Positions 4,384-59,972 of a stretch of 64,000 nt of DNA are shown piece after piece; position 1 is the first letter of the stretch, and each line of letters begins with the position of its first letter. A program made the position numbers and the translations under genes. The notes below the pieces were generated by a model. The model had not been told where the DNA came from. It did no database searches and saw only the letters and a list, made by a program, of their open reading frames with translations. Source of the stretch: an uncultured Candidatus Saccharibacteria bacterium (GTDB lineage Bacteria > Patescibacteriota > Minisyncoccia > Sungbacterales > HO2-52-23); assembly GCA_964585475.1 (NCBI GenBank), contig CAZPDF010000005.1, positions 3,323 through 67,322 of the forward strand. Reading direction: 5' to 3'.

Positions 4384-4550
4384 GTGACACTTTTTATATT
4401 TCTTCCCAACAACGTTCTTACATTCTCAAGTATGTTGGTATGTTTTTATCTCCCATGACACATTTTATATTTCTTTCTGGACTATTCGCTTATTCGTACG
4501 AATAAGCGAATAGTCTCCCACATCGCATGACACTTTTTATATTTTTTTTC
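4381..4550. repeat. def-fmt intergenic array: three ~25-bp direct repeats (catgacacWttttatatttctt) at ~73-bp spacing plus a perfect 32-bp palindrome (4482-4513)
   Basis: Copies lie at about 4381, 4454 and 4526. The first contains the fmt ATG. The palindrome is ctattcgcttattcgta|cgaataagcgaatag. Confidence 0.7.
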
Positions 4551-5912: not shown

Positions 5913-6743
5913 ATGCCGACTTTTGTTATTGAACTGACGATGTTAAAATTCCTCTCTTCGGTTCTCCGCGATTTCGATTCAAGCTTCGTAATTGTGAATA
6001 GCTTGGACGATCCGCGTCTCTTGGTAAAAATTTTGGAAAGAGACGATTTCCCGTTGGGTACGGAGGTGATTACTTCGGAACTATCTGCGGTGTCCTGCGA
6101 AGAATTATGGAAAGAATTTAGTATCGACCGCAGAGATGTTGCAAAAGAACTTGCCAGTCGTGGTATCCCGGACGAATTAAAGTCCGTTTCGTTCAAGAAG
6201 CAGTTGAGATTGTGGCTCGGTATGCCGGTGATGGAAGGTGGGAAATGCTACAACGCTTATATTTTGCTTGACCGGGGAGAAATAAAATTCATTCACCGCA
6301 AGCGCCACATATACACGAAAGAGGAAAAGGCGATTTTTGATCGCCCTCGCATCTACGACGGTCATTTCGAAGGACGCACAGTTCTTATTTGCCACGAGCT
6401 TTTCGGCGCCTGGGATCCTACATGGCATAAATGCCATACCCCGGAAGTAAGAAGCAGGAAATCAAGGATAATTCTGGTTCCTGCCTACTGGGGTTGGGGG
6501 GCCGGCAACCCAAAAACACTAATACGGGCTGCACGGGAGGTTGTTTGGAGAGTTAAAGAGCCGAGTGACCGCAAGTCCGCCATGCACCCATCCGGTGCGC
6601 TTTTGCTTCTTGCCAATGCCAAGTGGGCTGCAGTGTTCGGGCCGCTTGAGAAAGGAAGACAAAAAGGCGGCTGTTACGCCCGTCTTGATAAACCCGGCTG
6701 GATCCGCGTTTCCCGAACCTCCCTTTCCACCAATGAGTTATAA
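5913..6743 (+). CDS. carbon-nitrogen hydrolase (nitrilase superfamily) family protein
   Basis: IHRKRHIYTKEE matches the nitrilase K-x-HL motif, and VLICHELFG matches the catalytic Cys motif. Confidence 0.55.
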   Translation: MPTFVIELTMLKFLSSVLRDFDSSFVIVNSLDDPRLLVKILERDDFPLGTEVITSELSAVSCEELWKEFSIDRRDVAKELASRGIPDELKSVSFKKQLRLWLGMPVMEGGKCYNAYILLDRGEIKFIHRKRHIYTKEEKAIFDRPRIYDGHFEGRTVLICHELFGAWDPTWHKCHTPEVRSRKSRIILVPAYWGWGAGNPKTLIRAAREVVWRVKEPSDRKSAMHPSGALLLLANAKWAAVFGPLEKGRQKGGCYARLDKPGWIRVSRTSLSTNEL

Positions 6744-7203: not shown

Positions 7204-8529
7204 ATGATGAAGAGGGGATCAGTTGATGAGGTTATTTATTTTATCGGCATTGGCGGCATAGGAGTATCCGCCCTTGCTAAATATTATCTTTCTACTGGTG
7301 CTAAAGTAAGCGGCTCGGATTTGGTATCTTCCGAAAACACTGATGAGCTTAAGAAATTGGGCGTAGCGATACGAATAGGCAAGCAAGCGAGAAAAAATTT
7401 GCCAAAAGACGTTACGTTTCTTATTTATACCGCCGCCACGCCGCGCGATAACCCGGAACTGCAGGAGGTACGCCGGAGAAAGCTTAAAGTTCAAAGTTAT
7501 CCCGAGGCAATAGGGGATCTTACCAAGCGATACAAGACCATAACCGTATCCGGCGCCCACGGGAAAAGCACCACGACTGCTCTGGCCGCGCTGGTGCTTG
7601 AAGAAGGATATTTTGACCCTACCGTTATTGTCGGAACGCGGGTGAAGGAATTTGGCAATTCAAACTTCCGCCTGGGCCGCGGCTCGCATTTGGTTCTTGA
7701 AGCCGACGAGTGGAACAAATCGTTTTTAAAGTATGCTCCCCAAATCGCTATCGTGACGAATATTGATGCGGAGCATTTGGATACGTATAAAACAGTTGAC
7801 GCGGTGGAGCGCGCATTTGCCGAGTATCTGGGGAAGGTGCCGGCGGAGGGCGCGATCATTGCCAATCGCGATGACCGGCGGCTTGCCAAAATCGCCAGAA
7901 AATTCGGTAAGAAGGTGATATGGTATTCGCGAGGTGACGAGGAGGCCGGTGCCATGAGGCATTTTCTGCGAGTGCCCGGAGAGCATAACGTCGTAAATGC
8001 GCTGGCCGCATTGCGGCTGGGTCAGGTCCTCGGAATACAGTCGCCCTCGATTTGGCGCGCCGTATCGCGCTTTAGCGGTACGTGGAGAAGGTTTGAATTT
8101 AAAGGGATTTCGAAGGGCGCTTTTATTTTTACCGATTACGGGCATCATCCATCGGAAATTCAAGCGACGCTATCTGCCGCGAGGGAGCGTTTTCCATTCC
8201 GGCGCATATGGTGCGTATACCAGCCGCATCAGTATCAGCGCCTCGCTTATTTATGGGACGATTTTATTGGCGCATTTGACATGGCGGACCGTGTATGTCT
8301 GCTTCCTGTTTATGATGTTGTCGGGCGGGAGACGAAGACGGCAAAATCGCGGGTGAGTTCCGAAAAACTTGCGCATGCGATTGCATCGCGCGGCAAGGAC
8401 GTCTATTACCATACATCTTTTGCTCAAGCGAAGTCATTCATAGATTCCAAGATCCGCCCCGGAGATATCCTGCTTATTATGGGAGCGGGCGACATCTATC
8501 AACTGACAAATCAGATAACGGCGCACTGA
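7204..8529 (+). CDS. murC: UDP-N-acetylmuramate--L-alanine ligase
   Basis: GIGGIGVSALAKYY, GAHGKSTTTA (P-loop), and Mur ligase middle and C-terminal domains are present. Confidence 0.9.
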   Translation: MMKRGSVDEVIYFIGIGGIGVSALAKYYLSTGAKVSGSDLVSSENTDELKKLGVAIRIGKQARKNLPKDVTFLIYTAATPRDNPELQEVRRRKLKVQSYPEAIGDLTKRYKTITVSGAHGKSTTTALAALVLEEGYFDPTVIVGTRVKEFGNSNFRLGRGSHLVLEADEWNKSFLKYAPQIAIVTNIDAEHLDTYKTVDAVERAFAEYLGKVPAEGAIIANRDDRRLAKIARKFGKKVIWYSRGDEEAGAMRHFLRVPGEHNVVNALAALRLGQVLGIQSPSIWRAVSRFSGTWRRFEFKGISKGAFIFTDYGHHPSEIQATLSAARERFPFRRIWCVYQPHQYQRLAYLWDDFIGAFDMADRVCLLPVYDVVGRETKTAKSRVSSEKLAHAIASRGKDVYYHTSFAQAKSFIDSKIRPGDILLIMGAGDIYQLTNQITAH

Positions 8530-9329
8530 TGAGTAACGTAGAAATAAAGAACCACCAAATAAATATTAAGGGGCTTAATGTCTATTACAGAACCGCAGGC
8601 GATTCAAATAACTCGCCCGTAATACTATTAAACGGCTGGGGCGCACGGACTACAGGCTTTTTACTGGGAAGCGACAAGGTTATTAGAGAGTTAGTAAGGC
8701 ACCGATTTTACGTGTATTCTCCCGAACATCCGGGCCTTATGCGTTCCGAGACGCCGAAAGAGATTTGGGGATTTAAAGAATATGACGAGTATCTTGAAGA
8801 GTTTATCCAAAAACTCAACATTAAAAATTTTATTCTCATCGGTCAATCATTTGGCGGAGCAGTGGCAACGGCTTATGCTGCCGAGCATCCATCGGATATA
8901 AGGGTACTGGTTCTAGTAAGCGCTGGTCTCTCAAGTGATAAATTGCATGGGTTTCTCTTCCGCCATCTTTTATATGGGAAATGCTTTAGTTTAACCCTCC
9001 GATCAAAATTTGTATTAAAAACAGTTAAGAAATTGTTTGCATCGGCAGTTCTTGGAATACCGTGGAGTCATTTGGAAAAAGAGAACTTGGAGAACCGAGC
9101 AACTATGGGCGAGATCTTTTCGCAGTGGTCGTTAGAAAATATGTATAAAAAGGTAACAACCAAAACTATCTTAATCTGGGGAAAATACGATCAGTTTTTT
9201 CCTATTTCTTCAGCCCGAAAGGTGGCCACAGAGTTACCAAACGTAAGGTTATATGTAGTTAATGCCGGTCACAGCGTTCTTTACAGGAATCCTAAAAGGA
9301 CGGTTGAGCTTATAGTGAGCGCTCTATGA
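8529..9329 (+). CDS. alpha/beta-fold hydrolase
   Basis: GQSFGG nucleophile elbow with the fold pattern. The start overlaps the murC stop (ATGA). Confidence 0.7.
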   Translation: MSNVEIKNHQINIKGLNVYYRTAGDSNNSPVILLNGWGARTTGFLLGSDKVIRELVRHRFYVYSPEHPGLMRSETPKEIWGFKEYDEYLEEFIQKLNIKNFILIGQSFGGAVATAYAAEHPSDIRVLVLVSAGLSSDKLHGFLFRHLLYGKCFSLTLRSKFVLKTVKKLFASAVLGIPWSHLEKENLENRATMGEIFSQWSLENMYKKVTTKTILIWGKYDQFFPISSARKVATELPNVRLYVVNAGHSVLYRNPKRTVELIVSAL

Positions 9330-9373
9330 TTTTTTTATAGGTAAAGAACGTTTAATATACCCACAGTGGACTG

Positions 9374-9480
9374 ACCCCGTTAGAGATGCGGAATGGAGTA
9401 ACACCGGTTATATGCATGTGGCTGCAGAGCGACTCTTATCCCTTACTTCAATCTGGAATAAATCTCTAACGGGGTTGACC
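9374..9480. repeat. ~107-bp inverted-repeat element with termini gaccccgttagagat / atctctaacggggttgacc
   Basis: Seen directly. It belongs to a CCCCGTTA-terminated IR family also present at 21274, 25126 and 58607. Confidence 0.7.
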
Positions 9481-23563: not shown

Positions 23564-23599
23564 TCACTAAAGTTTTGACGATCGTCAAAACTTTAGTGA
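23564..23599. repeat. perfect 36-bp palindrome tcactaaagttttgacga|tcgtcaaaactttagtga
   Basis: Seen directly between the terminator and the gltX 3' end. Confidence 0.8.
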
Positions 23600-43174: not shown

Positions 43175-43885
43175 TTATGCCCCGGAACGTCGTTCGCGGG
43201 ACTTGAATTCTTTGATCATGGAAGCAAGTTCGTTCATCGTAAAATCCGGCCAGAGCGTTTCGGTGGAGAAGAAATGCGCCTTTCTCAATTGCCACATGAG
43301 CTCTCCATTTGAAAGATGCATTTCCCCGCCGGTGCGAACATACATATCCACGCATCCGAGAAATCCGCTTGGCATGCACTGGTCAATCAAGTTGGCAGTT
43401 GTTGGGATGCTTCTCGGAATACCGCGCATGCGGTCAATCGCCCCAAGAAACTCTTCGTCGCCGTTATATGCGAGAAGAAGCGTAAAGGTTTGGCCGCATC
43501 TTGACTTTGTTTCTTCTTGAAGAGTATCTACTTTGAGGGCAAGACGCGCAGGAACTAGATTTCTATTCCAATAATCCCCTACTACGCGGAAACGAATGTC
43601 GCGCTTCTTAAATTCGGCGTCTTCCCGAAGTTCTTCAATGCCTTGGTCAAGAAGCCGGAAGAGGTTCCCCACCTCTTCAGGTTCCCTATTTTTGCCATTA
43701 TCTTTTGAAAGAGCCCAGAAGATAAAATTGTCTACGTCATGGTCCCAGACATCGCGTAGGATGCATTTCAAGGCGTCATACCCCTTCCGGTGGCCCTGGT
43801 AGCGCTCTAAACCCTCTTGCATCTCGTATCGCCTGTTTCCGTCAGGAACACAGCATATAGCAAGACCCTGCGTCTGGATTTCCAT
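43175..43885 (-). CDS. uppS: undecaprenyl-diphosphate synthase (cis-prenyltransferase)
   Basis: VPDGNRRY N-terminus, and VRTGGEMHLSNGELMWQL...ETLWPDF matching the UppS RTSGE..LSNFLLWQ..WPDF block. Confidence 0.75.
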   Translation of the reverse strand: MEIQTQGLAICCVPDGNRRYEMQEGLERYQGHRKGYDALKCILRDVWDHDVDNFIFWALSKDNGKNREPEEVGNLFRLLDQGIEELREDAEFKKRDIRFRVVGDYWNRNLVPARLALKVDTLQEETKSRCGQTFTLLLAYNGDEEFLGAIDRMRGIPRSIPTTANLIDQCMPSGFLGCVDMYVRTGGEMHLSNGELMWQLRKAHFFSTETLWPDFTMNELASMIKEFKSRERRSGA

Positions 43886-44146
43886 CCCGTTTTTTCCTTA
43901 AGCAGGTTATTTGATATTTTACGATATTTTCTGATATAATGCAATAGCAGGAAATTCGGGCCTATAGTTCCGACCTTCATTAAAGTTATATAGGAAGTCG
44001 AGAATCCACGATTTGACCAAATGAAGACTTGGTCAAATCGGGACTTAGTGGCAGTGTCCCGATTCAATTTTGATTGAATCGAGGATGCTCGATTTTCAAA
44101 GAAAATCGGCACATCCGGTTTGTTCACCCTCCCACCTTTTATGTTA

Positions 44147-44217
44147 GGGCTCATAGCTTAGTGGTAGAGCACCCGGTTTGCATCCGGGAGATCGGGGTTC
44201 GATTCCCCGTGAGTCCA
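44147..44217 (+). tRNA. tRNA-Ala (anticodon UGC)
   Basis: Acceptor gggctca/tgagtcc with a G3:U70 identity pair. Anticodon stem cccgg/ccggg with loop ttTGCat. T-arm cgggg-ttcgatt-ccccg. Discriminator A. Confidence 0.85.
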
Positions 44218-44342
44218 TTGGTAAAGGTGGGAGGGCAAGTCCGGTAGATGGGAGTTCCTCCGATTTTGTCTGCGGTATTACCGCAGCTACAAAATCGAGA
44301 GTCCTCGATGTGGTAAATCAAATCAAAGATTTGAACCACATC

Positions 44343-44362
44343 GGGAGATTCCCCGTAGGTCC
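44343..44362 (+). repeat. partial direct duplication of tRNA-Ala 3' end (gattccccgtaggtccat vs gattccccgtgagtccat)
   Basis: Seen directly 125 bp downstream of the tRNA. It is att-site-like. Confidence 0.6.
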
Positions 44363-44474
44363 ATCGAGCTAAGATTGAGGGGGGTTGTTACCAAGCCAAG
44401 CGTTCAGACAATCCAAAAAATCGTCAAGTCGTTAGGCGTTCCTATGGAGGATTTATTAAAATAATTTTTACAAT

Positions 44475-45410
44475 ATGAAAATAGAAATCTTTGAAGAAGA
44501 CGGCGACAATACACTCTCATTTGACGACAAGTACGCCGATTTTACAATTGACATATACTCTGATTCAAAAACCTATCAATCAAGAATGAACTTGAAGGAC
44601 GATGTCTATTATCGTACCGAAAAATTTGAGTATCGTATCAAAACTGACCCTTTGAAAGTAGAGACTAGATTAACCGAACGAGTAGATGAACCCCCAGAAA
44701 GATACTGTGTGAAAGACGGAGTTGTTTTAGAGTCAGATATTCTTGCTGATAGAAAGGAAATGGCTATGTCCTCAATGACTAAAGAGTTTATTGATGGTCT
44801 TAAAAAAGAAGTTGAATGGCACGAGGATTGGGTGGGCAATCCTGTCTCAATGTACATACTTTCTAAACATCCTGAAATAGTTACGCCAGACGATTATCGC
44901 CGAAACTTGCGACAATTGTCAGAAAAAATAAAGAACGCAACTCTCAAGGTAGAAAAAGCACTTGAGTCAGACAAAATGGGTTTGCAGGTAACGGATGAAT
45001 GGGTAGATTCAGGGCGAACAATCTGGCTTTCAAAATCAAAACAGGATGAGTTGTCGGAAGAGGAAGTCAAAAAAGCTATTGAGCATCAGCACAAACTCCA
45101 AGAACAATTTTTTGATGAGAAATCAAGTGAATATGTAGGCGTTTCTGAAGGTGAATTTAGGTCAAGTGTCGACATACTGGAAAATATTGAGACATTTCTA
45201 AACAAAAAGCCCGCCTCTGTAAAAAAAGAAGCTGACCAAAAAATCTCAAAAACGAAGGGGTATATTATCTCTGTACTTTTGACTCTATTTCTTTCATGGG
45301 TCATAAGTTGGTTTGTTGATATAAACCCATTTTTGATTTTTGTTATTGTGCAGGTTGTTGCGTTTGCACAAAGCATTATTGGAGGTTGGTTGGGTAAGTT
45401 TTTTGAATAA
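44475..45410 (+). CDS. hypothetical protein with two C-terminal transmembrane helices (AT-rich island gene 1)
   Basis: 311 aa, roughly 36% GC. A cytoplasmic domain precedes VLLTLFLSWVISWFV and LIFVIVQVVAFAQSIIGGWL. Confidence 0.4.
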   Translation: MKIEIFEEDGDNTLSFDDKYADFTIDIYSDSKTYQSRMNLKDDVYYRTEKFEYRIKTDPLKVETRLTERVDEPPERYCVKDGVVLESDILADRKEMAMSSMTKEFIDGLKKEVEWHEDWVGNPVSMYILSKHPEIVTPDDYRRNLRQLSEKIKNATLKVEKALESDKMGLQVTDEWVDSGRTIWLSKSKQDELSEEEVKKAIEHQHKLQEQFFDEKSSEYVGVSEGEFRSSVDILENIETFLNKKPASVKKEADQKISKTKGYIISVLLTLFLSWVISWFVDINPFLIFVIVQVVAFAQSIIGGWLGKFFE

Positions 45411-45425
45411 GTAAGATTATATTTT

Positions 45426-45875
45426 ATGAACCAAACAAAATCAATTTCATTTCAAGGACAGGAATACTTTGATGATAGACTGTATGTTTTATATTTGTGC
45501 AAAGGCACTGTTGAAATTGAACCTGATAGCGATGGGGCTGTTTGGACGAGAATTTATCACGAACAGGCACCAACCGATCACATTTGGTGCGTAGCAACAT
45601 ATAGAAATTGTAATCGTTATCCTTTATATCGAGTAGATAGTTTTTATAAAAAAGAAGATGCGGTATTGTATATGAAGAAAATTGAGCCAGAAACTCCCCT
45701 GATCAGTTTAAGTGGCAAGTCTCCACTCCACCCAGTTTCTTATGAAGAATATCTATCATGGAAAAAAGAAAATGATATTAAAGAATATGATTGGCAGTCG
45801 CTGTATTCGCCTGATGGGAAAAATGCTAGTGAATCTATAGGGCAAACAAAGGAACAATTTAAGGGGATAATGTAA
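45426..45875 (+). CDS. hypothetical protein (AT-rich island gene 2)
   Basis: 149-aa ORF. AT-rich. Confidence 0.35.
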   Translation: MNQTKSISFQGQEYFDDRLYVLYLCKGTVEIEPDSDGAVWTRIYHEQAPTDHIWCVATYRNCNRYPLYRVDSFYKKEDAVLYMKKIEPETPLISLSGKSPLHPVSYEEYLSWKKENDIKEYDWQSLYSPDGKNASESIGQTKEQFKGIM

Positions 45876-45916
45876 GAATCAACATTTGGTAAGGACTACC
45901 CTTACTAACCCAAAAA

Positions 45917-46435
45917 ATGAATAATCAAGAAAAACATAAATACGCCTACGCTCTTACGAGCGTAGCTTCTACCGGGCTTTCTTTTATAGAAAATTCTTTA
46001 TCGAGCATAATGAACGAAGCAACAGACATGGCTTATTTAAGATCATTCTACATTTTGTTGTCTTACAATTTTGAACTTGTTTTAAAATCAAGAGTAGTAA
46101 TGATAAAAAGTTTTTCTGACAAAAAATCTATAAATAATGAGTTAGGAAAATTAGGTCACGATATAACAAAAATAGGAAAAACTCTCGCCACCAATTTGGA
46201 AGAGTTAGGTGTAAAAGAAATAATCGAGAATGGGAGCCAATATAAAATTGTCACTACTGACAACAAGGAAATTTATATAGAAAACTTTACGAAAATTAGA
46301 TACGATTTTCTCGATGATGTGATGCGTAATGTAGACAATCAAGAACACACACGGATAAAAGAATATGCCGATATATTAGTTTCTATTTTGAGAAAGGCGA
46401 AACAGAAGAACGAGGAAGCAAAAAATCAACCGTAG
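45917..46435 (+). CDS. hypothetical protein with HEPN-like Rx6H motif (AT-rich island gene 3)
   Basis: 172 aa, predicted helical. MRNVDNQEHTR fits the HEPN Rx4-6H catalytic motif. Confidence 0.35.
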   Translation: MNNQEKHKYAYALTSVASTGLSFIENSLSSIMNEATDMAYLRSFYILLSYNFELVLKSRVVMIKSFSDKKSINNELGKLGHDITKIGKTLATNLEELGVKEIIENGSQYKIVTTDNKEIYIENFTKIRYDFLDDVMRNVDNQEHTRIKEYADILVSILRKAKQKNEEAKNQP

Positions 46436-46489
46436 TATCTAGCAAGAACAGTAGAGGGAGCAACCCACGCCGTTTTATAATTCCATCAA

Positions 46490-47686
46490 ATGATCAAATT
46501 TTTACTTAGCATCGGGATCATTATATTTTTACTGGGCGGCTCCTCTTTGTTGTGGTGGGACGAGACCGGTGTTGACGTAGACGAAACGGCGGGCATCGCT
46601 TCGCCTCCGTCTCAACCAAGAATCACCGAGCCGCCGTTGCCGGATGTTACAAAAAAACCAAATGATACCGTTGAGAAAGCTAAAATTCCGGAAAAGGTCA
46701 TAACGCCGGAGATTACGGCGAAGGCGACGTCAACTTCGGATGTTTTACGCTGTTTCGGATCCACGCCGGATCAATTTAAATGCTACCGCGAATATTACGG
46801 TGAACTTATTGCCAAAGATGGAGCCAAGCCCGCAATTATTGATATTAAAGGCAGGTACGCTGATTCGTTCGTGAAGTCCCAGTGCCATCAGCTCATGCAT
46901 ATTATTGGCCGCGCCTCGGCGGATAAATATAAAACCGTAGCTGAGGCGTTTCAAGAAGGCGATCCTTTTTGCTGGTCAGGATATTACCATGGAGTTATGG
47001 AAGGGGTAGCACTACACCTCGGGAGAGAAAAACTTGCGCAGTCTCTTGATATAATATGTGCAGGAATTCCCGGCAAAGAGCGATTCTCGTTTGATTATTA
47101 TAATTGTGTACACGGCTTGGGACATGGCATCATGGCGATTTTGAATGACGAGCTTATGGATACGCTCGCTATGTGCGATAATCTTAGCGGGTCTTGGGAG
47201 CAATCCTCATGCTGGAGCGGAGCGTTCATGGAAAATATAATAGCCAATGGCATAGACCACCGTTCAAAATACTTGAAAGATAACGACCCCCACTACCCCT
47301 GCGACGCCGTAGATGAAAAATATAAAGGCGTTTGCTATATTATGCAGACCTCGCGGATGTTGGCCCTGACCGGTTACGATTTTGTGAGAGTTTATGCGCT
47401 ATGTGCCGCAGCGGAGGAACCCTATATCAATATCTGCTATCAGAGTTTAGGTCGCGATGCGTCTGGCTCAACCGTAAGCGATGTAGAACGAACCAAGGCA
47501 TATTGTCTTCTTGGCAAAGACAACCGTCAGCAATCAAACTGCGTGATAGGGGCGGTAAAGGATTTCATATCCTACTTCCACTCGGATAAACAGGCGCGCG
47601 AATTTTGCTCCGCACTTCCGGAGGATCTTCAGTCGATCTGTACGTCAACAGCGGAGAGTTACTACCTCTCGTTCAGGCCGTCTTAA
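46490..47686 (+). CDS. hypothetical membrane-anchored Cys/His-rich protein
   Basis: N-terminal TM, more than 20 Cys, and a duplicated C.H...H..G segment (CHQLMHIIG / CVHGLGHGIM). Confidence 0.4.
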   Translation: MIKFLLSIGIIIFLLGGSSLLWWDETGVDVDETAGIASPPSQPRITEPPLPDVTKKPNDTVEKAKIPEKVITPEITAKATSTSDVLRCFGSTPDQFKCYREYYGELIAKDGAKPAIIDIKGRYADSFVKSQCHQLMHIIGRASADKYKTVAEAFQEGDPFCWSGYYHGVMEGVALHLGREKLAQSLDIICAGIPGKERFSFDYYNCVHGLGHGIMAILNDELMDTLAMCDNLSGSWEQSSCWSGAFMENIIANGIDHRSKYLKDNDPHYPCDAVDEKYKGVCYIMQTSRMLALTGYDFVRVYALCAAAEEPYINICYQSLGRDASGSTVSDVERTKAYCLLGKDNRQQSNCVIGAVKDFISYFHSDKQAREFCSALPEDLQSICTSTAESYYLSFRPS

Positions 47687-55871: not shown

Positions 55872-57327
55872 GAAATGGAAGAGGGCGCCGAATACACCCG
55901 GCGTTTATGCATTCCAAAAAGGTTCCGCACAACTTTATATAGGCAAAGCCGTAAATCTTAAAAAGCGGGTTGCTTCATATTTCCGGAAAAATATAAGCGG
56001 CAAAACGCGCGAACTTCTAAAAGAAGCGACAAAACTTGATTGGATCGAAACCGCGTCTGAAATAGAGGCCTTTCTAAAAGAGGCGGAACTCATTAAAAAA
56101 TACCGCCCCAAATATAATATCCTGATGCGGGATGACAAAAATTATTTTTATGTGGGGATTACCCAAGAGCAGTTTCCGAGAATTTTTCTAACCCATCAGC
56201 CCAACCAATATCTTTCGAGTGGAGCGAAGCGAAATCGAGAAAAATTCCATAAGGTAAATTCTCGACTTCGCTCGAACAGTAATTTTACTGGTCCTTTTAC
56301 GAGCGGAAATGCGCTGAAATCAGTCTTGCGGCTTCTGCGCCGTATTTTTCCCTACTGCACTTGCAAAACGTCGCACAGGCGGCCGTGTTTGAATACGGAG
56401 ATTGGGCGATGCCCTGGCTACTGTTGTCTCCAAGGCGAGCTACAACACACCAACATTCTCAAGTATGTTGGTGTGTTGTCAGAGCGAAAAAAAGAATACG
56501 GGACAAATATAAAAAATATAATTGCCGTGCTTTGCGGGAAAAAGAAGCGGATTCGAACGGAATTGAGACGCTCGATGAACGAGGCGGCAAAGAGGGAAGA
56601 CTTTGAAAAAGCGGCAAAAATTAGGGACCAACTCAATGGACTTGAAAATATATTTTCGCATCGGAAATTTTTAGAGGTTGAACCTCCCGTTGGGGGTTCA
56701 ACCTCCCCGAGACTACTATGGCCCAGGGTCGAAAAGTACATCCGGAGTCTCCTAGGAATAAAAAAGCCCATTTCTCGAGTTGAGGGCTATGACATTTCAA
56801 ATATATCGGGGGCCGAGGCGACCGGCTCAATGGTGGTATTTATTGAAGGGAAACCGGTAAAATCCGAGTACCGTAAATTCAAAATTAAGACCGTCCGGGG
56901 CATAAGCGATGTGGGTATGTTACGAGAAGTGGTCGCCCGGCGAATGGCACATGAGGAATGGCAATATCCGGACCTCATGTTAATTGATGGGGGGAAACCG
57001 CAGTTCAATGCGATACTTAGTACGCTCTCTAATCAGTCACGAATAAAAAGATCTCGAATAATCTCGAATGCCCAGCATAAAATTCGAGATATTTCGGGTA
57101 TGAATTCGGGACCGATTAAAGGGATTAAAGTGGCGGCGCTCGCTAAACGCGAGGAGGAATTATATACTGAAGGCGCGGGAAGGCCTATCCGTCTTTCCTC
57201 ACTCCCTGAAAATACTGCCAATTTCTTGAAACGCGTGCGGGACGAATCGCACCGCTTCGCCAAAAAATATCATCATAAGTTACGCGAAATAAGCTTTCGC
57301 AGTAATGCAGAAAAAAGCGAAATCTGA
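55858..57327 (+). CDS. uvrC: excinuclease ABC subunit C (short form lacking C-terminal HhH)
   Basis: GIY-YIG N-terminus (GVYAFQKGSAQLYIGKAVNLKKR), a Cys cluster, and a C-terminal RNase-H-like endonuclease domain. It contains an in-frame palindromic insert. Confidence 0.8.
   Translation: MLNVKKWKRAPNTPGVYAFQKGSAQLYIGKAVNLKKRVASYFRKNISGKTRELLKEATKLDWIETASEIEAFLKEAELIKKYRPKYNILMRDDKNYFYVGITQEQFPRIFLTHQPNQYLSSGAKRNREKFHKVNSRLRSNSNFTGPFTSGNALKSVLRLLRRIFPYCTCKTSHRRPCLNTEIGRCPGYCCLQGELQHTNILKYVGVLSERKKEYGTNIKNIIAVLCGKKKRIRTELRRSMNEAAKREDFEKAAKIRDQLNGLENIFSHRKFLEVEPPVGGSTSPRLLWPRVEKYIRSLLGIKKPISRVEGYDISNISGAEATGSMVVFIEGKPVKSEYRKFKIKTVRGISDVGMLREVVARRMAHEEWQYPDLMLIDGGKPQFNAILSTLSNQSRIKRSRIISNAQHKIRDISGMNSGPIKGIKVAALAKREEELYTEGAGRPIRLSSLPENTANFLKRVRDESHRFAKKYHHKLREISFRSNAEKSEI
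56214..56284. repeat. palindromic repeat copy C inserted in-frame in uvrC (gagtggagcgaagcgaaatcgag...ctcgacttcgctcgaacagtaa)
   Basis: It shares gctcgaacagtaa with copy D and gagcgaagcga with copies A and B. It encodes LSSGAKRNREKFHKVNSRLRSNS. Confidence 0.6.
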
Positions 57328-57457
57328 AAAACGTGCGGCCAAGAAAAAGCGTAGAAAGTACCCCATAAGCGGGCATTCGGTTTTTCTCATTCAAAAACTG
57401 CAACACAAAACGCGTCGGTGATCACCGACGCGTTTTGTAAAGTTTTATGGTTTAATG

Positions 57458-59926: not shown

Positions 59927-59972
59927 AAAAGAATCCTAGTCAGAATCCTAGGATTCTGACTAGGATTCTTTT
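59927..59972. repeat. perfect 46-bp palindrome aaaagaatcctagtcagaatccta|ggattctgactaggattctttt
   Basis: Seen directly, immediately 3' of the dnaK stop. It may act as a bidirectional terminator or attenuator. Confidence 0.8.

Follow-up and report, generated by a model that had tools for sequence, protein, structure and literature searches.

The 64-kb window considered here (the whole stretch of DNA that was analysed, 64,000 nt, whose coordinates are used throughout) comes from an uncultivated bacterium of the Patescibacteria (candidate phyla radiation, CPR). It carries a gene for an alanine transfer RNA (tRNA), tRNA-Ala(UGC), followed by an islet of three AT-rich genes and then by a gene encoding a cysteine-rich protein of 398 amino acids (aa). 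The interval that separates the tRNA from the 398-aa gene is probably an insertion hotspot, in which independent cargo genes and scars in the tRNA flanks have accumulated. The main elements of the locus, with their open reading frames (ORFs), are as follows:

43911–43940, plus strand: promoter-like site TTGATA–18 nt–TATAAT with an extended TG, agreeing at 11 of 12 consensus positions (a consensus match alone)
44147–44217, plus strand: tRNA-Ala(UGC), anticodon tgc, called by ARAGORN and scoring 72.1 bits against the Rfam tRNA model
44475–45410, plus strand: 311-aa gene (ORF)
45426–45875, plus strand: 149-aa gene (ORF)
45917–46435, plus strand: 172-aa gene (ORF), with RNVDNQEH at residues 137–144
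46490–47686, plus strand: 398-aa Cys-rich gene, the distal edge of the insertion and the ancestral downstream neighbour of tRNA-Ala(UGC)

The tRNA is apparently intact, with the G3:U70 pair present and the CCA end not encoded. Spacers of 15 and 41 nt separate the islet ORFs, and 54 nt follow the last one. The first-pass annotation had described three AT-rich genes of about 36% GC with products of 311, 149 and 172 aa, and this description agrees with the ORFs found and with the composition of the whole gap between tRNA-Ala and the 398-aa gene (2272 nt, 36.4% GC). Over 44400–46400 the GC fraction is 0.31–0.39, compared with 0.44–0.49 on either side and a background of 47%. The site at 43911–43940 is likely to be the start of the tRNA-Ala transcript, judging from its sequence, which would give a leader of about 205 nt made of hairpins. 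Since the islet genes lie on the tRNA strand and no terminator was found between them and the tRNA, they are also likely, as a prediction, to be read through from the tRNA promoter.

The status of the islet becomes clear from a comparison with 80 metagenomic loci encoding relatives of the 398-aa protein at 43–60% identity (compared loci are numbered with the prefix L). At five of them (L042, L057, L062, L080 and L100), a mere 0–154 nt separate the 398-aa relative from a tRNA-Ala(tgc) located upstream of it on the same strand, and the 2.27-kb stretch of the window is therefore an insertion. At four further loci, host-like genes of normal GC content lie between tRNA-Ala(tgc) and the 398-aa relative. 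The relatives also have a promoter-to-tRNA leader of merely 10–30 nt, and the equivalent spacers at six other loci are unstructured (folding z from −2 to +1, versus −4.5 and −5.5 in the window). Because the gaps and leaders of the relatives are short and their spacers unstructured, an ancestral unit that consisted of a promoter, tRNA-Ala and the 398-aa gene has been expanded on both sides of the tRNA. The first-pass proposal that the islet was acquired, and is not part of a conserved core, is thus borne out both by gene order and by the deviating composition.

The 398-aa Cys-rich family, which has no Pfam match, very often has a tRNA as its neighbour (Ala(tgc), Ala(ggc), Pro or Ser), and the combination of this gene with a tRNA is a conserved pairing across Parcubacteria-type genomes (the window and L041–L120). 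Just past one homologue, at L048:2055–2128, there is a tRNA-Ala-like element without an ARAGORN call; it has the acceptor strands GGGCCCT/AGGGTCC, G3:U70 and an encoded CCA, together with atypical D and anticodon arms.

The three islet genes are independently travelling single-gene units stacked at this position, and they do not form a conserved module. This conclusion follows from the facts that their families never occur together, that they share no common partner and that the similarity to other loci is confined to the ORFs. When the three proteins were compared by tblastn with 38 loci (roughly 30 distinct ones) from the 172-aa and 311-aa families, each taken with flanks of 5–6 kb, a single family was found at every locus. 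After the closest homologues of all three proteins had been added, no co-occurrence was seen in about 35 other distinct loci, homologues with 88–93% identity included. All-against-all clustering of ORFs at 27 loci revealed no recurrent neighbour within 3 kb of the 172-aa homologue. Moreover, the DNA similarity to other loci extends from 2–5 nt ahead of the start codon through the stop codon and no further.

The closest homologues illustrate this independence. The 311-aa homologue with 93% identity is flanked by genes for 176-aa and 274-aa proteins, and the one with 88% identity adjoins Schlafen/AlbA_2 and HD/Zeta-like genes (L121). Two homologues of the 149-aa protein (88% and 75% identical) are found in other gene company, the latter preceded by an HpaII restriction-modification pair together with an AIPR gene (L126), and the 172-aa homologue with 89% identity follows a protease-like gene. 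Other homologues lie near restriction-modification genes (L001) or a gene for a 924-aa ABC-type ATPase (L010). A 330-aa protein encoded upstream of the 172-aa homologue in L002 was considered as a possible relative of the 311-aa protein and proved not to be a homologue.

According to the first-pass annotation, none of the three proteins had recognisable similarity to known proteins. This holds for Pfam, PHROGs, NCBIfam and PADLOC, in which nothing usable was found; the only PADLOC match, to HEC-01A (E = 0.0085, 13.5 bits), is spurious, as the HEC-01A model describes an ABC ATPase. Outside such curated collections it does not hold, as more than 110 homologues without annotation exist for each of the proteins. 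All named homologues of the three families belong to Patescibacteria, namely to Parcubacteria-type lineages (Giovannoni-, Kaiser-, Portnoy-, Falkow-, Jorgensen-, Yanofsky- and Nomurabacteria) and also to Gracilibacteria. A viral origin was rejected, as a search of IMG/VR contigs with the tool used gave no relatives of any of the three families.

The 311-aa protein belongs to a family of at least 152 members. Its structural model (pLDDT 86, the predicted local distance difference test score) contains a seven-stranded sheet with helices in an N-terminal domain spanning residues 1–245, and two C-terminal hydrophobic helices at 259–280 and 285–310, in agreement with the two transmembrane (TM) segments noticed at first reading. 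Across the family, a conserved soluble domain of about 245 aa is combined with three unrelated alternative C-terminal membrane tails, and the homologues stand alone in other contexts. The label of TM effector, originally attached to this protein, was not substantiated, as no match to known effectors was obtained.

The 149-aa protein has at least 131 close homologues, and an exhaustive profile search collected 241 clusters at 50% identity. Residues Y14, D16, R18, C25, H45 and C55 are invariant in this domain, which also occurs fused to Sel1, TPR and RHS repeats, to Adhesin_E and to a prepilin-peptidase-like segment; these fusions hint at a protein-interaction or immunity-type module. Comparison of its alignment profile with PDB sequences returned nothing, there was no match to nucleotidyltransferases, and the gene was not found beside any other 172-aa homologue.

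The product of the third gene is the one whose fold can be named. The AlphaFold model of the 172-aa protein, built from a 37-sequence alignment, is of high confidence (pLDDT 91.2; predicted template modelling score, pTM, 0.89) and is composed of long helices at 3–30, 38–63 and 143–169, short helices within 69–96 and a small beta-sheet at 99–122. The predicted structure is an up-and-down alpha-helical bundle, which is the fold common to solved HEPN domains. In the motif R137-NVDNQE-H144, the histidine is the second residue of the last helix (143–169), so that the Rx4-6H motif stands at the N-terminus of the last core helix, as in HEPN proteins. Residues R137, D140, E143 and H144 are conserved in at least 90% of the 37 sequences, down to 38% identity. 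The HEPN-type Rx6H motif proposed from the sequence is therefore supported by structure prediction. Two outcomes had been named as telling against the original proposal, the lack of a HEPN fold and an islet that forms a conserved core of uniform composition; both were checked, and neither was found.

No described HEPN family from Pfam, NCBIfam or PHROG matches the 172-aa protein at a meaningful E-value, and its alignment profile gave nothing below E = 0.1 against PDB sequences. On the basis of the model, it is regarded as a new, minimal and partner-less HEPN family. The gene is under purifying selection (dN/dS 0.08–0.18), and its GC content ranges from 26 to 40% in hosts of 33–56% GC. One copy of 33% GC, placed in a locus of 56% GC, shows 84% nucleotide identity to the gene of the window. 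From these comparisons, the family appears to have spread horizontally.

Several further features accompany members of this family. Two tandem paralogues of the HEPN gene are present at L016:137–1130, and the homologue at L025:5001–5516 is broken up into two ORFs, possibly as a pseudogene. In three lineages, an intergenic multi-copy repeat of about 180 nt lies directly 3' of the homologue's stop codon (copies at L004:4234–4401, 6528–6734, 8508–8603 and 9356–9472; L014:5526–5714; L001:6548–6646). The right end of this repeat resembles the T-arm and 3' acceptor strand of tRNA-Ser(gct), and its minus strand encodes a conserved peptide ending in ..KVHPEWFEVPKPKSDKG..DYSI*. A 69-aa ORF that follows some homologues was considered as a partner gene and rejected, as it corresponds to this same repeat, which is absent from the window.

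The 172-aa product most likely acts, by analogy with other HEPN proteins, as a dimer with an R/H active site and as a metal-independent RNase. A defence role for this protein, suggested at first reading, is plausible; a function in single-gene abortive infection, in phage defence or as a toxin RNase is the most probable of the roles considered, to be advanced tentatively, as it falls somewhat short of an even chance. Such a role in biological conflict is suggested because the distribution of the family is patchy, horizontally spread and compositionally foreign, because its genes are frequently found beside restriction-modification and abortive-infection genes, and because single-gene HEPN defences have a precedent in HEC-08, in which the histidine of the Rx4-6H motif is essential (bioRxiv 10.1101/2024.01.29.577857). 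Two points weigh against this proposal. The RNase and defence roles would rest on fold, motif and neighbourhood, and solo HEPN toxins usually require an antitoxin or a trigger, neither of which is visible for the 172-aa protein.

A different assignment, which is rather unlikely and still the nearest competitor, is that the protein serves as an RNA-processing or nucleotide-binding accessory factor, neither defensive nor toxic. This would be consistent with the missing conserved antitoxin or partner and with the finding that several of the top structural matches are non-toxic HEPN domains, such as that of sacsin and nucleotidyltransferase substrate-binding domains. It would also suit the frequent position of the gene right after housekeeping genes or tRNAs, which suggests constitutive co-transcription. 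However, the catalytic-type arginine and histidine are almost invariant, the patchy and transferred distribution with its compositional mismatch fits accessory or conflict genes better, and restriction-modification and abortive-infection genes are neighbours at some loci.

When compared with known systems, the 172-aa protein resembles AbiV, AbiU2 and AbiD/F-type proteins, which are stand-alone HEPN abortive-infection or defence proteins, and likewise HEC-08, in being a single-gene helical bundle with an Rx4-6H motif, in its accessory distribution and in its placement in variable or defence regions. It differs from them in lacking a profile match to the HEPN families of Pfam or PADLOC, in its smaller size, in an insert of three beta strands that separates helix 3 from the catalytic helix and in its restriction to Patescibacteria. 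HEPN toxins of HEPN-MNT pairs have the RX4HXY form. The 172-aa protein, unlike such pairs (SO_3166, 5yep; 7ae2; 8xdj), has the Rx6H spacing and neither an adjacent MNT nucleotidyltransferase nor any conserved neighbour at the 27 loci.

As stated in the first-pass annotation, tRNA-Ala is bracketed by a perfect 13-bp inverted repeat, and this repeat turned out to be the innermost of a series of nested palindromes, with five strong hairpins (H1 to H5) in the tRNA flanks and a degenerate copy of the tRNA end:

44005–44043: hairpin H1, with a perfect 12-bp core stem CGATTTGACCAA/TTGGTCAAATCG at 44009–44020 and 44029–44040
44053–44089: hairpin H2, GTCCCGATTCAAT..ATTGAATCGAGGAT, overlapping the palindromic motif AATCGAGGATGCTCGAT at 44077–44093
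44090–44108: hairpin H3, CGATTTTC-AAA-GAAAATCG, from folding
44127–44139: left arm of the 13-bp bracketing inverted repeat, CCCTCCCACCTTT, complementary to the right arm at 13/13 positions
44223–44235: right arm of the 13-bp bracketing inverted repeat, AAAGGTGGGAGGG, complementary to the left arm at 13/13 positions
44258–44301: hairpin H4, CCGATTTTGT CTGCGGT..ACCGCAG..ACAAAATCG, from folding
44302–44346: hairpin H5, CGATGTGGT..ACCACATCG, terminating in ATCGGGA, from folding
44337–44364, plus strand: degenerate tRNA copy (T-arm and 3' acceptor strand), with a core at 44347–44364 that matches 44201–44218 at 16 of 18 positions

The bracket is not a product of chance, because stems of this length are outliers. 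The longest perfect stem that pairs one flank with the other was measured for 89 tRNAs from about 1 Mb of retrieved Patescibacteria DNA. It spans 1–7 bp at 85 of them and 12–20 bp at four, the window tRNA-Ala included; three of these four are tRNA-Ala(tgc). Another of them is found at L068:151–251 (minus strand), where a perfect 13-bp inverted repeat abuts the acceptor stem of a tRNA-Ala(tgc).

The hairpins share sequence elements. Most of them have CGATT.../...AATCG feet. The motif AATCGAG-N4-CTCGAT occurs once on each side of the tRNA (44077–44093 and 44293–44309), its second copy spanning the 3' foot of H4 and the start of H5; these are its only two matches, at 44077 and 44293, with 0.15 expected by chance. 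In addition, TCCCGAT at 44057–44063, within H2, is the inverted partner of ATCGGGA at 44340–44346. The region 43990–44400 as a whole folds with z = −10.4. For the downstream flank, z is −7.8 on the plus strand and −6.4 on the minus strand, and the tRNA flanks in general fold equally on both strands (z from −5.6 to −7.8). All stems are purely Watson–Crick, without a single G-U pair. Because the palindromes fold equally well on both strands and lack G-U pairs, their origin points to events at the level of DNA rather than to a selected RNA structure. A terminator reading of the hairpins was rejected, and an Rfam search of 43800–44500 for a group I intron found the tRNA only, the flanking fragments not joining into a tRNA. 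Elsewhere in the window there are several further long palindromes, perfect or nearly so, whose arms reach 23+23 nt and whose loops are short or absent (59927–59972, 23564–23599, 4480–4515, 57405–57438 and 56442–56479).

The first-pass annotation had also reported that the T-arm and acceptor 3' end of the tRNA are duplicated 125 bp downstream. The duplication is real and the distance approximate, as the gap between the two copies is 128 nt and their start-to-start spacing 146 nt. If a 3-nt gap is allowed, the similarity reaches back to 44337, thus extending over about 28 nt (ATCGGGG-TTC-GATTCCCCGT.. versus ATCGGGA-GATTCCCCGT..). With up to 3 mismatches, the tRNA-end motif has two matches in the 64-kb window, and none of 100 shuffles gave two. 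The segment 44337–44364 is interpreted as a remnant of a tRNA-Ala 3' end, either an older one or one that was displaced. The suggestion that it is the attachment (att) site of an integrated island did not survive, for this copy lies between the tRNA and the islet genes, hence before the islet, and no third or distal copy was found in the 64-kb window; being proximal to the genes and without a distal partner, it cannot be an att site that bounds the islet. An integrase, for which a search had been suggested at first reading, was also not found, as no recombinase or integrase domain was detected in the three islet proteins and ten neighbours (about 7 kb).

Duplicated tRNA ends are found beyond the window as well. 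Exact copies of 14–17 nt from tRNA 3' ends lie 150–290 nt downstream of tRNA-Lys, tRNA-Val, tRNA-Asn (twice) and tRNA-Arg (twice). The corresponding units (L053:613–778; L066:3992–4120; L097:1280–1757; L026:899–1217) each include an inverted T-arm-like segment as well, and those in L097 and L026 are doubled in tandem; they have the look of miniature elements directed at tRNA 3' ends. Since exact 3'-end copies accompany several other tRNAs, insertions of small size by which a tRNA end is copied are a common occurrence in this phylum. An exact 15-nt copy of a tRNA-Ser 3' end also lies beyond the 172-aa homologue in L014. As proof of a distal att site it was rejected, for a purD-like gene separates the tRNA from the homologue.

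The events at the hotspot can be outlined in a probable reconstruction. The space from tRNA-Ala(UGC) to the 398-aa gene would have been filled at least twice. The hairpins, the 13-bp bracket and the decayed copy of the tRNA 3' end are probably the scars of small elements that inserted at or into tRNA genes. Beyond them lies an AT-rich block of 2 kb with three independently acquired single-gene cargoes in the direction of the tRNA, probably co-transcribed from its promoter. Each cargo family is a Patescibacteria-specific, horizontally spread entity which occurs solo elsewhere, often among restriction or abortive-infection genes. The 172-aa family itself lies within 1.5 kb downstream of a co-oriented tRNA (Ala, Ser, Val or Leu) at 7 of about 28 loci, against a background of about 9% of ORFs (binomial p about 0.004–0.02), which fits the view that regions downstream of tRNAs are landing pads and does not require a tRNA-specific function.

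Several observations weigh against this account. The enrichment near tRNAs is modest. The relatives with an "empty site" are distant, with 46–54% identity in the 398-aa protein, so that the order and timing of insertion cannot be read from them, and no contig of the same species without the islet turned up, the search yielding just a pair of short identical ones (L039 and L040). The islet genes abut closely, and a lineage-specific functional coupling is possible. Integron cassettes were excluded, as an attC site, which requires at least about 57 nt after each ORF, cannot be accommodated in spacers of 15, 41 and 54 nt.

In comparison with tRNA-linked islands, the islet is similar in its position downstream of a tRNA, its deviating composition, its absence in relatives and the partial repeat of the tRNA 3' end. 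It differs in that there is no integrase within about 7 kb, the repeat does not bound the cargo, and the content consists of three unlinked ORF-sized units.

The strongest competitor for the origin of the tRNA flanks, improbable as it is, regards tRNA-Ala itself as a passenger. According to this explanation, a palindrome-flanked cassette with a tRNA-Ala of its own, originally mobilised by a GIY-YIG homing endonuclease, inserted into the resident tRNA-Ala and replaced it; the remnants of the old gene would be the 3' fragment at 44337–44364 and perhaps a 5' fragment at 44040–44056. The idea rests mainly on two loci. At L062:1737–2163, a resident tRNA-Ala(tgc), whose 5' half is identical to nt 1–34 of the L057 tRNA, is split by an insert of 368 nt placed between nt 35 and 36. 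This insert contains a GIY-YIG ORF (1793–2041; Pfam 1.6e-15) and a complete tRNA-Ala (2052–2122) within a perfect 12-bp bracket, and the T-arm of the outer tRNA has a 13-nt deletion. At L059:7431–7579, a tRNA-Pro(cgg) lies within a perfect 20-bp inverted repeat, and directly behind it comes a 3' fragment of tRNA-Pro, beginning within the anticodon loop at about nt 37; a matching tRNA-Pro 5' half was not found there. Group I introns are known in tRNA genes of Patescibacteria at position 35/36 of the anticodon loop (PMC13011429). The L062 insertion resembles them in its site and in its homing-endonuclease-type ORF, and unlike them holds a complete second tRNA within a decayed outer one, which speaks for replacement rather than splicing. 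No group I intron signature was present in L062 or L059. At L119:1835–2051 (minus strand), the truncated 5' half of a tRNA-Pro(ggg) ends just past the anticodon; tRNA-Leu(cag) lies within 10 nt behind it, with tRNA-Pro(cgg) coming next.

The window and the L062 insert share the left-junction octamer TCCCGATT as well as AATCGAGGATNCTCGAT just upstream of the inner tRNA, at equivalent positions. Their local alignment scores 30, in comparison with a mean of 17.3 (standard deviation 2.3, maximum 27) for shuffled sequences. The unit in the window is flanked by TCCCGAT and ATCGGGA, and the rarity of perfect brackets, with tRNA-Ala(tgc) prevailing among them, would also suit a replacement. On the other hand, the window has no endonuclease ORF, the short 5' fragment could just as well be the 3' fragment copied in inverted orientation (74% complementary), and the 3' fragment begins at the T-arm and not at the anticodon loop. 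The similarity to L062 covers only about 35 nt, and there are two clear examples elsewhere and no more. A comparison against 11 other tRNA-Ala(tgc) genes, made for both the inner tRNA and the 3' fragment, yielded nothing discriminating. The wider notion that Patescibacteria harbour a class of mobile cassettes entering the anticodon loop of a resident tRNA with their own palindrome-bracketed copy of the same tRNA, of which the window would be an ORF-less relic, is likewise to be held as unlikely.

With still lower probability, the bracket and the hairpins would constitute a functional RNA structure in the tRNA-Ala precursor, for instance a stem for processing by a double-strand-specific RNase, or a leader and trailer with a regulatory or stabilising role. 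All these elements do lie within the predicted transcript, which runs from the promoter-like site to the downstream genes without a terminator; the 13-bp stem stacks below the acceptor stem in the predicted fold; and bracketing stems of differing sequence are found at three other tRNAs. Nevertheless, perfect Watson–Crick stems that are equal on both strands are typical of DNA palindromes, relatives with the same gene order have short and unstructured leaders and trailers, and no Rfam family was matched.

The least credible explanation is that of a three-gene abortive-infection or defence cassette integrated at the tRNA-Ala 3' end with the partial copy as its att site, as the first-pass annotation had it: the tRNA-adjacent position, the AT-rich composition, the absence from relatives, the HEPN fold confirmed in the model, the tight spacing on one strand and the defence neighbourhoods of many homologues all suit it, and they are outweighed by families that are never neighbours elsewhere, a tRNA copy on the wrong side of the genes without a distal partner, the lack of a recombinase within 7 kb, a 311-aa protein that matches no known effector and a sole PADLOC match, the spurious one of the 172-aa protein to HEC-01A.

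An insertion hotspot with independent cargo genes thus remains the preferred reading of the locus. What is new is a HEPN family and two uncharacterised Patescibacteria families brought together in a tRNA-side hotspot, and this novelty is modest. The repertoire of defence and conflict genes in Patescibacteria is poorly known, and a compact, partner-less HEPN family confined to these bacteria has been missed by current libraries. The apparent cassette beside the tRNA is a pile-up of unrelated cargoes, which calls for caution in predictions of function that are based on guilt by adjacency. The replacement of tRNA genes by bracketed cassettes is the most unusual lead, suggestive at the level of sequence and resting mainly on related loci. 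If true, it would represent replacement of a tRNA gene by homing and not an intron, with a GIY-YIG endonuclease gene sometimes accompanying the cassette. The tRNA flanks of the window, together with L062 and L059, provide a searchable lead on the invasion and replacement of tRNA genes in reduced genomes.

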